Below are positions 7,048 to 22,875 of a DNA stretch of 64,000 bases, one piece after another. The stretch lies in assembly GCF_041886205.1 (NCBI RefSeq), contig NZ_CP169029.1; one strand, given 5' to 3'. The notes below the pieces were generated by a model, which made no database searches, was not told where the DNA came from, and saw only the letters and a program-made list of their open reading frames with translations. Made by a program: the position numbers and the translations under genes. Numbering within the stretch: the first letter of the stretch is position 1; each line of letters starts with the position of its first letter. Source of the stretch: Escherichia coli. Its GTDB lineage: Bacteria > Pseudomonadota > Gammaproteobacteria > Enterobacterales > Enterobacteriaceae.

Positions 7048-7491
7048 TTATGTATAAAGACTATCGTCGTAGGGTGCTTCAGTCAGAATTTTTTGAATTT
7101 CATGTCGTGCTTTTAGCTCCCATGAAAGATTCATATTTGCCATTAACTCAATAAATTTTGGGAACGCGATACGTCGTCCATCTCTGCCTTTAACCCTGTG
7201 TTCTAATTCATATTGGAATGCTGTCTTATAAGCGAGTTCTGACATGATCCAATAAAGTAGCTCATCTAGTGACCTAGTAACCTTCCGCGAGAATTCATAA
7301 CCTCTTTCTGAATGAATGTAATTATATACATTGTTTTCAAATGTAACATATGGTGTGCCATCACCAATTGGAGCGGAACAAAGATTAACTGAATGTCTTG
7401 GGAGACCAGCTTGCAAGGTCAACGCGTCAATTTTCCTTTGTATTTCATTGATATTCAGCAACATATTAGCGAACCTCACGAATATATCCAT
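7048..7491 (-). CDS. Hypothetical protein, immunity-protein-like
   Basis: 147-aa ORF whose ATG lies inside the 3' end of an upstream open frame (overlapping toxin/immunity-style arrangement). Confidence 0.35.
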   Translation of the reverse strand: MDIFVRFANMLLNINEIQRKIDALTLQAGLPRHSVNLCSAPIGDGTPYVTFENNVYNYIHSERGYEFSRKVTRSLDELLYWIMSELAYKTAFQYELEHRVKGRDGRRIAFPKFIELMANMNLSWELKARHEIQKILTEAPYDDSLYT

Positions 7492-7721
7492 TCTTCAATA
7501 GCCATTCCACATTCACTCGATCTTGCATATTAGGTAATATCTGAATCCCCCCTCCAGGCTCACCAAAAGCGGGGGCAATCTTTCCTTGTATAGCAGGCAA
7601 GGGTTTTATTACCTCATATTCATAGTATTTATATGAACGCATCCCGTTTGCAAGGCATCCATTGTTTTGACATGACGGGTAGGTTGCAGCTTTATATCCG
7701 GCTTTATTGCAGCCGTAACGC
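7468..7721 (-). pseudogene. Start-less open frame, possible C-terminal fragment of a truncated polymorphic-toxin gene
   Basis: Open frame on the minus strand (...NKAGYKAATYPSCQNNGCLANGMRSYKYYEYEVIKPLPAIQGKIAPAFGEPGGGIQILPNMQDRVNVEWLLKNGYIREVR*) with no plausible start, ending 21 nt inside the downstream ORF. Confidence 0.25.
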
Positions 7722-13325: not shown

Positions 13326-14609
13326 TTAGTTACATTTAGCTCTAAGTGTTTGTAGTTTCATCGCAATGAGTAAAAGGACAACAAGAATAAGTGATAACGT
13401 TAAGAGAAGAGCATAGAAACCATTCCAGTGGTATATTTCTATTATTTTAGACAATGGATAGCCAGCCGCGGATGCACCAAGATATGCGAATAAACTAACA
13501 AAACCAGTAGAAGCACCAGATGCATATTTATGTGAGTTTTCAGCAGCTGCCATTGCGATCAGAAATTGTGGACCAAAGATAAAGAAGCCAGTGATGAAAA
13601 ATAACAACGAAAAAACATATTTACTATCGATAGAAACCAACCATAGACATGCAGAAGCAATGATTATACCAATTGTATAAATAACATTCATTTGAGAGCG
13701 ATTGCCCTTAAACAGAATATCTGATCCCCATCCAGCTACGATAGCACCAAAAAAGCCTCCAACCTCAAACATCATTACTGTTGCATTTGCTGTTAGCAAG
13801 TCATATTTATGAGTCTCAATCAAATACAAATTTCCCCAGTCATTGATTCCTGTACGAATAACATAAATAACTGCATATGATATTGCCAATACCCAAATTA
13901 TATTATTTTTAAATATATAATCTTTTAAGATATTCCATTGTGACAACCCTATACCTTGTTCTTCATGATTAATCTCAGCTATATCATTACGCCACTCTCC
14001 AACTGTTGGTAATCCCATCGATCTTGGTCGATCACGCAATAAGAAACATAATAAAATGCCAATAATAACAGCAATGGCCCCCGGAATAATCATGCCATAA
14101 CGCCAACCTAGCCATAAGGCAACACTACCTGATAAAATAGGGATAATTGCTCCACCGATATTATGAGATGTATTCCATATGGACCACCAGAATCCACGTT
14201 CATTTCGGGAATACCAAGTATTTAAAATTTTTGAACACGGAGGCCATCCCCATCCCTGAAAAAAAGCATTAACCATCCATAAAAATATAAACAAAGGTAT
14301 AGATGATGTTAAACCAAACAATATATTGACACATCCAGTCATTATCAATCCAATCCCCATAAACCATCTTGGATTAGAACGATCACCTATAACTCCAGAA
14401 ATAAATTTTGATGCCCCATAAGTTAGATAAAATGCCGTTCCGACCATACCAATATCTGATTTTGTAATACCTAAATCAGATAGCATCTCAGGCATTACGA
14501 AGTTAAAGCTCTTTCGTGTGAAATAAAATACAGCATATCCTATATAGCTCACAATCATTAAATGAAGTCGCCAATATCTATATGTTTTATCAATATCAGT
14601 TTTACTCAT
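13326..14609 (-). CDS. MFS transporter, organophosphate:phosphate antiporter family (UhpC/UhpT/GlpT/PgtP-like)
   Basis: About 427 aa, 12 predicted hydrophobic segments, family-typical motifs (DRSNPRWF, FFQGWGWPP); AT-rich; likely start MSKTDIDK at 14609. Confidence 0.7.
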   Translation of the reverse strand: MSKTDIDKTYRYWRLHLMIVSYIGYAVFYFTRKSFNFVMPEMLSDLGITKSDIGMVGTAFYLTYGASKFISGVIGDRSNPRWFMGIGLIMTGCVNILFGLTSSIPLFIFLWMVNAFFQGWGWPPCSKILNTWYSRNERGFWWSIWNTSHNIGGAIIPILSGSVALWLGWRYGMIIPGAIAVIIGILLCFLLRDRPRSMGLPTVGEWRNDIAEINHEEQGIGLSQWNILKDYIFKNNIIWVLAISYAVIYVIRTGINDWGNLYLIETHKYDLLTANATVMMFEVGGFFGAIVAGWGSDILFKGNRSQMNVIYTIGIIIASACLWLVSIDSKYVFSLLFFITGFFIFGPQFLIAMAAAENSHKYASGASTGFVSLFAYLGASAAGYPLSKIIEIYHWNGFYALLLTLSLILVVLLLIAMKLQTLRAKCN

Positions 14610-14956
14610 TGTTATTTCTTTGTCAGGAGACTCTGAAAATATGGACATATATAACCTCTTTTATTATGAAATATTTTCAATAATAATCCGTTAGTAATCC
14701 TATCATAGGGTAATGCCTCATCATGTTAAAATGATCACATTTATAATCATGTCAAAAAGAACAACAGAAAAAATGATTTAAAATCAATTAAATATAATTT
14801 CAACATATTGTTGTTATTAAAACATTGGTGGTAAATGTAAAGCGAGAACAGTTTGTAACAGTGACTCCTTGCAGACTAAGTTAGAGTCTCCTGATCTTAC
14901 CCAGCAATAGTGGACACGCGGCTAAGTGAGTAAACTCTCAGTCAGAGGTGACTCAC

Positions 14957-16248: not shown

Positions 16249-17885
16249 TTACAGAACGAGGTTCCAGTGCAACAACTCTTCCACCCGGTTTGACGGCCAT
16301 TCACTGATACAGCTGATGACCTCACGCAACCAGCTTTCCGGATCCACTCCTTTCAGCCAGCATGTCGCCAGCAGGCTGTACAGGATCGCTGCGCTCTGAC
16401 CTCCCGTGTCTGAGCCGAAGAATAGCCAGTTGCGTCGCCCTAGGGCGACACAACGCAGTGTGTTTTCTGCGATATTATTGTCCAGCTCCACACGCCCGTC
16501 CTCACAACAGAGCGACAGCGATTCACGGTGGTTCAGCATATAGCTGAACGCTTTCCCCAGCTCTGCATGCACCGACAACGTCTCCATCTGTTCTGTCAGC
16601 CACGCGAACAACGCCTTCATCTGCGGGACGCTTTTCTCCTGCCGTTCTGCCAGCCGTTTCTCTGCCGGTGACCCCGGATTGTCGCTTCCACCACATACAG
16701 CCCGGCTATATGCTTCAGCGCCTCCGTTGTCATCGCTGCCGGCCGGCGAACATGCTCATCATGGATCTTTCTCCTTGCATGCGCCATGCAGGCGGCTTCC
16801 CTGATCCGCCCTGACTCATAAAGCGCATCGTAACCGGCAAACGCATCTGCCTGCAGGATACCTTTCCACTCCGCCAGATGCCCCTGCGGGTGACAGCCCC
16901 GACGATCTGCACTGTAAGCGAACCACGCCGCTGGCGGAGCCGCTGAACCGCGGTTCCGGTCATCGAGCACATACACCCACAGCCGGCCCGTCCGGGTTTT
17001 ACCGCTCCCCGGCTCCAGCACTTTCACCGGGGTGTCGTCCGTGTGCTATTTGCTGCTCTCTCTCCATCACGTAGCGGTTCAGCGCATCGTGCAGGGGACT
17101 GAGTCGTTCTGCGGTCATCGCCACCCACCGGACCAGCGTGTTTCGGCTCAGTTCCACACCCTGGTGGCTGAAGATGACGGACTGACGATGCAGCGGGGTA
17201 TGGTCACAGTATTTACTCACCAGGATGCGGGCCAGCAGGTCCGCACCGGCCACACTGCGGGTCAGCGGTTTCGGGGGAGTGGTGCCTGGACTATCACATC
17301 GCAGCGGCTGCAGGCCAGCTTCGGGCGCACCGTTTCGATGACCTTAAAGGAGCTGCGGATTATCTCCAGTTGCTCTGAGACGGTTTCACTCATAACCTTC
17401 AGGTCGCCGCCGCATTTCGGGCAGACAGTCTCTGTCGGGGGGATGCGCCGGGTTTCACGTGACAGGTCTGCCGGCAGTTTCTGACGACGGGAGCGGCGTG
17501 CAGGCCGGTCCTGTGGGGCGACCGCCACCGGGGGCTCTGCCTGCTCAACCGTACCGACAGCGGGCTCATCGTCCTGCAGACAGCGTTTTGCCGCTGCAAG
17601 ACGGTTTTCCAGCTCAGCCAGCCGCTTCTCTGCCTGGCGGATTTTATTTTCCAGTTTATTGCGGCTTTTCTCCGAACTCTGCCCGAACAGCATCCGCCGC
17701 AGCTTATCAAGCTGTGCCTTCAGCCGTTCGATTTCCTGTTCGTAGTCGGCAACCTGTCCGGCGTACTGGCGCAGCCGGGCCTGCTGCTTTTTCATGGTAA
17801 CATTTAGCTGTTCCACAGCAACCTGCTGCTGACGCAACAGGGCTTTCAGCTGGTCGATATTATCAGGAAGCGGGATATTTTTCAT
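16249..17885 (-). pseudogene. IS66-family tnpC pseudogene (multiple frameshifts)
   Basis: Four consecutive minus-strand ORF pieces (17262..17885, 16999..17253, 16617..17027, 16249..16620) together resemble one TnpC. Confidence 0.7.
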
Positions 17886-17904
17886 CCTGCCCAGGTAAAG
17901 GGAT

Positions 17905-18252
17905 TCAGATCCGCAGACTATTACTTTTCGACCTTCCCGGTTGCATCCAGACTATACCCTCCAGCAGCATGGCAAGCTGTGCCGGGGTCAGATACACCTT
18001 TCCCTCCCGGGCGACCGGCCAGATGAACGTTCCCCGTTCAAGTCTTTTCATATAGATGCAGAGCCCTCCGCTGTCTGCCCACAGGAGTTTTACCAGCCTG
18101 CCCCTGCGTCCCCGGAAGATGAAGAGATGGCCGGAGATCGGGTCATCCTTCAGGGTGTTCTGGACCTTTGCGGCCAGACCGTTGAAGCCGTTTCTCATGT
18201 CGGTGATGCCGGCCACGAGCCAGATAAGGCAGCCAGCCGGAAGCGTAATCAT
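17905..18252 (-). CDS. IS66-family TnpB (orfB)
   Basis: 115 aa, close homologue of the orfB at 9686..10033. Confidence 0.8.
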   Translation of the reverse strand: MITLPAGCLIWLVAGITDMRNGFNGLAAKVQNTLKDDPISGHLFIFRGRRGRLVKLLWADSGGLCIYMKRLERGTFIWPVAREGKVYLTPAQLAMLLEGIVWMQPGRSKSNSLRI

Positions 18253-18659
18253 ACTGTGCTCCTGCCGGCGAGTTCGCGGACGATCCGGAGCTGTTTCTCC
18301 GGGTCAGGATTGTCGAGTGTGAGGGTGCCGTGGCGAAGCGTCAGCGAGCAGGTTGACCCCGTTCCCTGACCAGACAGAGCCGGAGACTGCCGGGTGGTGG
18401 AGTCAGGTACAATTTCGACCGGAAGTGCCGCAGGAGGGGATACAGATGGAACGGGAGCTGGCAGCCGGCGGAATACCCGGCCTTCTTTACGCCACAGACG
18501 GATCCATTTAAAAAGGACGTTATCGTTGACCCCGTGCGTACGGGCAATATCCGCAACATTGGCGTCCGGTCGGGTAGCCAGTTCGACCAGCCTGAGTTTG
18601 AATTCGCTGGAATAAACGCGGCGGGGTTCGGTCCGCCAGGCCCGGGTTTCAGATTCCAT
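18249..18659 (-). CDS. IS66-family orfA
   Basis: 136 aa; FKLRLVELATRPDANVADIARTHGVNDNVLFKWIR motif. Confidence 0.75.
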   Translation of the reverse strand: MESETRAWRTEPRRVYSSEFKLRLVELATRPDANVADIARTHGVNDNVLFKWIRLWRKEGRVFRRLPAPVPSVSPPAALPVEIVPDSTTRQSPALSGQGTGSTCSLTLRHGTLTLDNPDPEKQLRIVRELAGRSTV

Positions 18660-18796: not shown

Positions 18797-19090
<294 letters not shown>

Positions 19091-19288
19091 AATCGTGATC
19101 ATTTTTTGTTGACCACTACAAACATTTATGTTTTTTTATGCGAATGAAGTTATCCTTCCTTTCTGCCTGGTTGTCTCATTCATACAGATATCTGGCAGAC
19201 ATAACTTGTTGTGAAAAGTAGATGCTTACCGCATGTCTGATGCACTTTTGTATAAAGGCAAAGTATTTCAGCAAATGGAAATGATTAT

Positions 19289-19789
19289 ATGAACAACACA
19301 GACTCATTAGAAAAAATAATCAAACATCAACAAAACAACGATCCAAAATACCCCTGCCAGGAGCATCTGTTGATACAACTCTGTATCCGCGTAAACAAAA
19401 AAATACAGGATAATATATCGAGTTTACTCAGTGGATATGGAATAAATTATTAAACATATATGGTTCTTACCATATTATCCACAGCAGATAATCATTGTCT
19501 TTCGCCCTCAAAGATAAGCAGAGAACTCCAGTTTACCAGAACAAACATTACCCGCATTACAGATTTTTTAGAAAAAGCAGGGTATATAGAAAGAACTGAT
19601 AGCAGAGAGGATCGCCGTGCTAAAAAAATCAGTCTGACATCAGATGGTCTGTCCTTTATTCAGAACGTCAATATTGCACAAAGTCTGCACCTGAAAGAAA
19701 TCTGGAGCCCGCTGACCCATGCAGAGTGTGAACTGTTTGAAGACATTAATAAAAAATTACTGACGCATATTGCTGATGTGTGTCCCTAA
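19289..19789 (+). pseudogene. MarR-family regulator (PapX/SfaX-like) with in-frame TAA at 19451-19453
   Basis: Single frame reads MNNTDSLEKIIKHQQNNDPKYPCQEHLLIQLCIRVNKKIQDNISSLLSGYGINY*TYMVLTILSTADNHCLSPSKISRELQFTRTNITRITDFLEKAGYIERTDSREDRRAKKISLTSDG...; winged-helix MarR signature with DRR motif. Confidence 0.5.
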
Positions 19790-22053: not shown

Positions 22054-22875
22054 TTATAAGGAAATGGCAGAATACTCTGTGTTTATCCATGAGTGTTCCT
22101 TTTCCCAGGTGAATATCCATTTACGTACTGGTCCGGCCATCACGTTAAGGTAATAACTGTCATACCCGGCCATCGTCGCCACCGGGTGGTACCCTTTCGG
22201 CACCATGACCACGTCACGGTTATAGACCGCCATACATTCATCAAGTGTGCGGTCATCGGTATACACCCGCTGCATGCAGAACCCCTGTTCCGGGTTGAGG
22301 CGATGGTAATAGGTCTCCTCCAGATAGCTCTCCTGAGGCGGGTTATTCGTATCGTGTTTATGGCTCGGGTACGAACTGGTACAGCCTTCGTTGGTCCAGA
22401 CCTCGACGACCAGCAGGCTGTCAGCGGGCTTGTCTTCCGGCAAAATATTATGCACATAACGCTGGTTGTGGCCGTTACCGCGCGCTTCGCCATCGATATC
22501 CTGAGGTGCAATCAACCGCGTCGGGTATGTCCCTTTTCCCGGAGCGGTACAGACTGCCAGCTCCAGTTTCGTCAGCGCCTTCACCTGCACTGCCTCCTGC
22601 GGGGTGACGTAAACTGCCCAAGGTTTGATGCGCTCGAACGGGCTCATCCGCTCCCCGATATCAGTAAACTGTGCAGAAGGAGTGCTGATGAAAGCGCGCC
22701 CGGCCACCAGCACCAGACAGCGCTCTTCACTGACAGCGGGCAGCGTCAGTTGCTGCCCTTCCTCAAGTTCATAGGCCTCAAAGCCAACATATCCCCATCC
22801 GGCGCTTTCCGGCGTGACAGACTGAGTCCGCCCCTCAGCGTTCGGCTGTTGCCAGCGTGATAACAAACGTGACAT
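22054..22875 (-). CDS. iolB: 5-deoxy-glucuronate isomerase IolB
   Basis: 273 aa, KduI/IolB cupin-like; located in the iol operon. Confidence 0.8.
   Translation of the reverse strand: MSRLLSRWQQPNAEGRTQSVTPESAGWGYVGFEAYELEEGQQLTLPAVSEERCLVLVAGRAFISTPSAQFTDIGERMSPFERIKPWAVYVTPQEAVQVKALTKLELAVCTAPGKGTYPTRLIAPQDIDGEARGNGHNQRYVHNILPEDKPADSLLVVEVWTNEGCTSSYPSHKHDTNNPPQESYLEETYYHRLNPEQGFCMQRVYTDDRTLDECMAVYNRDVVMVPKGYHPVATMAGYDSYYLNVMAGPVRKWIFTWEKEHSWINTEYSAISL

Follow-up and report, generated by a model that had tools for sequence, protein, structure and literature searches.

A PapX/SfaX-like MarR-family regulator pseudogene with an in-frame stop codon beside the chromosomal iol island of Escherichia coli

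The window, the whole stretch of 64,000 nucleotides of Escherichia coli DNA analysed here, carries on its plus strand a 166-codon pseudogene of a PapX/SfaX-like regulator of the MarR family (19289–19789), assigned by translation, Pfam, alignment and RefSeq annotation. The reading frame opens with ATG at 19289, is interrupted by an in-frame TAA at 19451–19453 (codon 55), has its next in-frame ATG at 19460 and closes with TAA at 19787–19789. The 54 codons preceding the stop (19289–19450, plus strand), the two codons that follow it (ACA TAT, encoding Thr and Tyr) and the 109 codons that run from Met58 (19460–19789, plus strand) are all in one frame. The read-through translation (166 residues) matches the Pfam MarR family [PF01047, E = 9.3e-12] over residues 52–111, across the stop, as well as MarR_2 [PF12802, E = 6.6e-11], with both matches lying within residues 50–111. 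Since the MarR match crosses the stop and the opposite strand of 19289–19789 has no open reading frame of 60 aa or more in the ORF list, the two open reading frames are the halves of one gene. The 109-aa ORF is often called by gene callers as a separate ‘transcriptional regulator’.

Upstream of the regulator lies an integrase-core remnant of the IS3 family (18815–19036, plus strand; RefSeq annotation of strain ZYB62 mapped to the window), followed, moving away, by a broken IS66, an IS3, uhpC, fragments of IS110 and IS66, a toxin/immunity remnant and a type I restriction-modification system. No fimbrial genes are found upstream of the regulator in the window, and the gene thus does not occupy the 3′ end of a fimbrial operon. 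The original prediction that insertion sequence debris rather than a fimbrial operon precedes the gene is borne out, with uhpC and the type I restriction-modification system as additional neighbours. In the broken IS66-family element (approximately 16456–18659, minus strand) the transposase is split into ORFs of 136, 84 and 207 aa upstream of intact tnpB and tnpA. The uhpC gene (glucose-6-phosphate receptor, approximately 13326–14648, minus strand) lies isolated among IS elements and apart from the uhp operon, a layout common to all five complete genomes that share the TAA (described below). Further out (approximately 7048–7660, minus strand), a gene of the immunity-63 family sits beside a C-terminal fragment of a TNT-domain toxin, apparently an orphan remnant of a toxin tip and its immunity gene.

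Downstream, the constant neighbour of the regulator is a gene for a 141-aa hypothetical protein (WP_000009634.1; 20461–20886, plus strand), for which there is no PHROG match and no significant Pfam match (DUF5338, E = 0.038). It is always located between the regulator and iolB, in an AT-rich spacer. The iolB gene itself (22054–22875, minus strand; identified from the ORF list, annotation and an island probe) is the first gene of a myo-inositol catabolism cluster. The GC content is 0.37 in the regulator gene, 0.34 in the spacer to iolB and 0.58 in the iol genes.

The regulator is clearly of the PapX/SfaX type. Without a single gap over 166 residues, its read-through translation has 71.5% amino-acid identity to PapX [strain 605, WP_001298062.1] and 72.3% to SfaX [IHE3034, WP_011478152.1], with about 80% identity at the nucleotide level; the stand-alone paralogue of the pheV island (WP_001301088.1) is closer still, with 81% of the amino acids and 87% of the nucleotides identical. 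The predicted recognition helix (FTRTNITRITDFLEK) and the predicted wing (DSREDRRAKKISLTS) are each identical in the window gene, PapX, SfaX and the pheV-island paralogue. Loci with 80–87% nucleotide identity occur in about 1,340 genomes, where RefSeq names them papX, sfaX or MarR family transcriptional regulator. The family assignment made from the first inspection of the sequence therefore stands, and an unrelated short MarR protein lacking the N-terminal part, the case that had been named as fatal to it, is ruled out because both halves align gap-free to PapX and SfaX. Among NCBIfam models the best match is MprA/EmrR (NF008122; 123.7 bits over residues 6–163), below its curated cut-off of 157 bits, which rules out an MprA/EmrR equivalog. 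Among solved structures there is no close relative, the best match being a generic MarR protein (E = 2e-12). The published residue numbering of the differences between PapX and FocX [T35A, A97T and M103T (Luterbach & Mobley, PMC6246914)] fits the 166-aa frame, and ATG19289 is thus the equivalent of the papX start used experimentally. The 17-codon N-terminal extension that RefSeq gives to PapX and SfaX is out of frame in the window lineage. Three database members of the family (P0016, P0017 and P0022), all from contigs of 0.9–7.2 kb, look like chimeras of X-gene lineages; P0016 joins a SfaX-like N-terminal half to the C-terminal half of the iol orphan and P0017 has the reverse arrangement. They could be real recombinants or assembly artefacts.

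The intact allele of the gene [WP_001066241.1, in FDAARGOS_1058 and APEC E123] differs from the window gene at a single base, 19452, where C is replaced by A and the Ser codon TCA becomes TAA. When 14 family members (64–98% identity) are aligned, all of them have Ser at position 55. The window gene accordingly lacks the 166-aa full-length frame of the X regulators, its TAA falling at codon 55. The interruption had been described at the outset as a lone in-frame TAA between 54 and 109 codons, and this is exact in its coordinates and frame, with the whole of the 166 residues colinear with PapX and SfaX; the accompanying claim that the regulator is inactivated is likewise upheld by a lone nonsense codon one base away from an intact allele. 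In ZYB62, where the gene has exactly the same sequence, the RefSeq label is ‘MarR family transcriptional regulator, pseudo, internal stop’. We conclude that 19289–19789 is very probably an unremarkable E. coli pseudogene, in which a stand-alone paralogue of PapX, SfaX and FocX has lost its function. The pseudogene is already known in the sense that RefSeq flags this exact sequence, the intact protein has RefSeq accessions and the family is well studied; a literature search returned nothing relevant on an orphan or inositol-linked papX.

As modelled with AlphaFold2 (mean pLDDT 75.6; 88–94 in the winged helix-turn-helix), the protein of the intact allele has the six-helix fold and β wing of MarR proteins. 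An N-terminal helix (residues 3–17) precedes α1 (residues 23–49), the predicted dimerization helix, which is followed by α2 (54–65), α3 (73–80), the recognition helix α4 (84–97), the wing strands (100–116), α5 (118–139) and α6 (144–164). Codon 55 is thus located at the boundary of α1 and α2, between the helices 23–49 and 54–65. The first 54 codons are predicted to encode only the two N-terminal helices (3–17 and 23–49) and no DNA-binding element, while the ORF from Met58 would encode part of α2, the winged helix-turn-helix, α5 and α6. In MarR proteins of solved structure (e.g. MarR itself, 1JGS), the dimer interface is formed by α1 together with α5 and α6.

Four complete bovine genomes (C10, C11, ZYB62 and ZYB39) share the 501-bp gene at 100% identity, and 41 further complete genomes carry it at 99.0–99.8%. 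A 113-bp probe places the TAA in five of these 45 E. coli genomes, the four bovine strains and the human isolate JML285, each of which has one X-family locus. The window as a whole matches no complete genome of the collection exactly; against ZYB62 there are five mismatches over 24.8 kb, and outside 7100–31900 the two differ structurally (IS content, rearranged flanks). The gene has been disrupted in other ways as well. The A7 tract at 19397–19403 (plus strand) is A8, a frameshift, in six other complete genomes, five of them poultry-associated and the sixth JML285, where the insertion comes on top of the TAA. Br_112_kylling has lost a T at 19564, one NCBI assembly has an additional G at 19359 and another lacks AG at 19359–60. 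In total, a disrupted allele is present in at least 11 of the 45 complete genomes, a count in which some homopolymer indels could be long-read errors; against this, five genomes share A8 together with the linked SNP 19722 C→T, and the AG deletion is outside homopolymers. A 139-aa entry (P0010) was considered as a sixth lesion and ruled out, since the genomes concerned have the intact 166-aa gene in their RefSeq annotation and the short form reflects the start choice of another annotator.

Had the TAA been a sequencing or assembly error, as the original prediction allowed, the gene would be intact in the organism. That the change is one base only would fit such an error, but the five complete genomes that have this base come from no fewer than three laboratories, and drafts from ENA, Logan and NCBI, assembled separately from different read sets, agree with them; moreover, it is a substitution outside any homopolymer run. 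The exact product of the 109-aa ORF is on 722 contigs and in 845 index blocks of the collection, and six of the eight non-redundant places read among its matches have the TAA, ENA and Logan assemblies of separate runs being among the six; independent NCBI draft assemblies have it as well. As the TAA recurs in complete genomes and also in drafts and SRA-derived assemblies of independent origin, an error is ruled out for practical purposes, and the TAA is a real and fairly common allele. The broken IS66 pattern recurs in draft assemblies with the TAA, which suggests a single origin of the TAA haplotype. Equally negligible is the idea that the TAA is read through or recoded to give the full-length protein. 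The frame is maintained past the stop, but the ancestral codon is a plain Ser TCA, and the frameshifts in other strains indicate that the lineage copes with breaks in the full-length frame. In E. coli, no stop codon is more efficient than TAA, and TAA is not a codon for selenocysteine or pyrrolysine.

A different fate of the allele would be a working short regulator, for which ribosomes would have to stop at 19451–19453, re-initiate at ATG19460 and make an α1-less 109-aa protein with retained or altered DNA binding, for instance as a monomer or a weak dimer. Starting 6 nt past the stop, the 109-codon ORF has no lesion of its own, and the recognition helix, the wing, α5 and α6 are all kept. Re-initiation so close behind a stop does happen in bacteria; at 19460 it is possible, some 109-aa protein may be made, and its complete winged helix-turn-helix, α5 and α6 may confer residual or altered activity. 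On the other hand, the sole GGA upstream of ATG19460 is 17–19 nt away, too far for a Shine–Dalgarno sequence (the equivalent GGA of ATG19289 is about 9–12 nt upstream), and de novo initiation at 19460 is therefore expected to be weak. Met58 is also inside the predicted α2, with α1 absent altogether. Most of the disrupting lesions leave the Met58 ORF intact, three of the four others (A8, the additional G and the AG deletion) being upstream of it, but this clustering is biased because two of the lesions were found by a search with the exact 109-aa product; the T deletion at 19564 destroys the C-terminal ORF too. The TAA allele is frequent, and a 109-aa form from the same Met is also found in the PapX/FocX cluster. 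Taken together, these points leave a functional short regulator quite improbable. The truncated product from Met58 that had been proposed for the locus thus has an open reading frame to encode it, but neither a correctly spaced Shine–Dalgarno sequence nor the predicted α1, and is conceivable but has little in its favour. A dominant-negative effect on another X protein is unlikely, given the single X-family locus of the TAA genomes. The 109-aa form just mentioned (P0051, MVLTTLF...) stands for 221 clustered sequences of the PapX/FocX type, so that in fimbrial X genes, too, alleles with a disrupted N-terminal part or differing choices of start codon may be common.

As to selection, the dN/dS between the paralogue lineages is 0.25–0.36, from which it follows that the intact gene was once working and was kept by purifying selection. 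Four further inactivating changes in the same gene, all of them indels, suggest relaxed or negative selection on this accessory regulator. Because the TAA allele is common, with the 109-aa ORF on hundreds of contigs, it is, at a minimum, not strongly deleterious and may even be favoured. A stronger proposal, that S55*, A7→A8, the additional G, the AG deletion and the T deletion in livestock-associated E. coli with the iol island reflect selection for loss of a motility repressor, or for the α1-less 109-aa variant, and not neutral decay, is one that we regard as speculative and rather unlikely to hold.

The position of the regulator away from any fimbrial operon is a property of the lineage. 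Where the allele is intact, the regulator is likewise preceded by this IS3-family remnant, and downstream of it come WP_000009634.1, iolB, iolE and the other genes of the iol cluster. Across 5,426 complete E. coli genomes, a probe consisting of the hypothetical gene and iolB identified 46 iol islands on the chromosome, and the regulator lineage is present in 45 of the 46, together with the same 141-aa gene; the regulator is thus a fixed passenger at the edge of the iol island. It is intact in at least 34 of the 45 complete carrier genomes. Loss of a fimbrial operon in this strain alone is ruled out, as none of the 45 carriers has one, those with the intact allele included. The description of the regulator as orphaned is consequently correct in that no fimbrial operon accompanies it, but the condition is not specific to the strain. 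The settings of the island differ, lying beside tRNA-Arg in ATCC 8739 and beside a Druantia defence system in FDAARGOS_1058 and APEC E123. A divergent second iolB–iolE (about 86.6% identity) is found on seven E. coli plasmids of 90–170 kb, which have neither an X gene nor the hypothetical gene.

Homology to the papX and sfaX loci begins near 19110–19120, downstream of the IS3-family remnant, and ends approximately 40 bp past the stop codon of the gene, a junction that would fit an old event in which an insertion sequence cut the gene off from a fimbrial operon. The retained segment includes a putative proximal promoter of the papX type (19109–19147, plus strand), recognized from the upstream alignment, with TTGACC (19109–19114), a 19-nt spacer, TTTTAT (19134–19139) and an A at 19147. 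The proximal promoter of papX and focX has −35 and −10 elements 19 bp apart and a start mapped by 5′RACE to an A 144 bp before the ATG (PMC6246914), and we located the counterpart in papX as TTGTCA, 19 nt, TTTTAT and then an A exactly 144 bp before the ATG of the 166-aa frame. A generic sigma-70 scan upstream of the regulator detected no promoter; the scan allows spacers of 16–18 nt only, and the published papX-type spacer of 19 nt is beyond its range. Transcription from the retained promoter is plausible.

These observations can be assembled into a history of the locus. The ancestor of the lineage would have been cut from a fimbrial operon at the IS3-family junction, and the regulator now accompanies the chromosomal iol island, fixed at its edge, with its papX-type promoter elements kept. 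In the sub-lineage of the window, a C→A transversion at 19452 changed Ser55 from TCA to TAA. Translation from ATG19289 thus stops after 54 residues, leaving a peptide of N-terminal helices that is not expected to bind DNA. The site recognized by PapX-type proteins is palindromic, and they bind it as dimers (PMC6246914). A product restarted at Met58, lacking α1, would presumably form no dimer for such an operator, because α1 is part of the MarR dimer interface. The net effect would be that the repression exerted by the intact protein is lost; by homology, its target would be the motility master operon flhDC. PapX-type genes repress flhDC; by homology, the intact orphan probably acts in a comparable way, and the TAA would abolish this. 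In ST131, disruption of papX raised motility and MprA is also a motility repressor (PMC5425062). Deletion or overexpression of vatX left motility unchanged (PMC6246914); since not every X protein affects motility, the motility role of the orphan is proposed with caution.

As a discovery the locus carries little weight, being an ordinary, annotated pseudogene. Its practical relevance would be in screens for virulence genes, which could miscount stand-alone X genes as fimbrial markers, as they share approximately 80% nucleotide identity with papX, sfaX and focX; such miscounting would affect strains without P, S or F1C fimbriae. The lineage also offers natural null alleles in the absence of other X genes for the study of cross-talk between the X family and motility.

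In comparison with the known systems, the window gene shares with PapX (P-fimbrial operon of UPEC CFT073) the MarR winged-helix architecture, a colinear length of 166 aa and a homologous upstream region. The two differ in location and integrity; papX follows the fimbrial gene papG at the 3′ end of the pap operon, whereas the window gene is elsewhere and has a nonsense codon. SfaX(II) and FocX, of the S and F1C operons, have the same architecture and upstream homology, but sfaX follows sfaH–sfaY in the sfa operon, whereas the window gene has an IS3-family remnant in front of it and the hypothetical gene and iol cluster behind it. VatX, encoded by a MarR-like X gene beside the vat autotransporter in CFT073 and 44% identical to PapX, resembles the window gene, going by its published description, in being an X-family regulator outside a fimbrial operon (PMC6246914). 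The closest paralogue is the orphan X gene of the pheV island (e.g. in strain TUM14759), which also stands alone among IS elements with no fimbrial operon. Unlike the window gene, it is in another island (pheV tRNA, IS100 downstream), is intact and has kept more of the papX-type upstream sequence.
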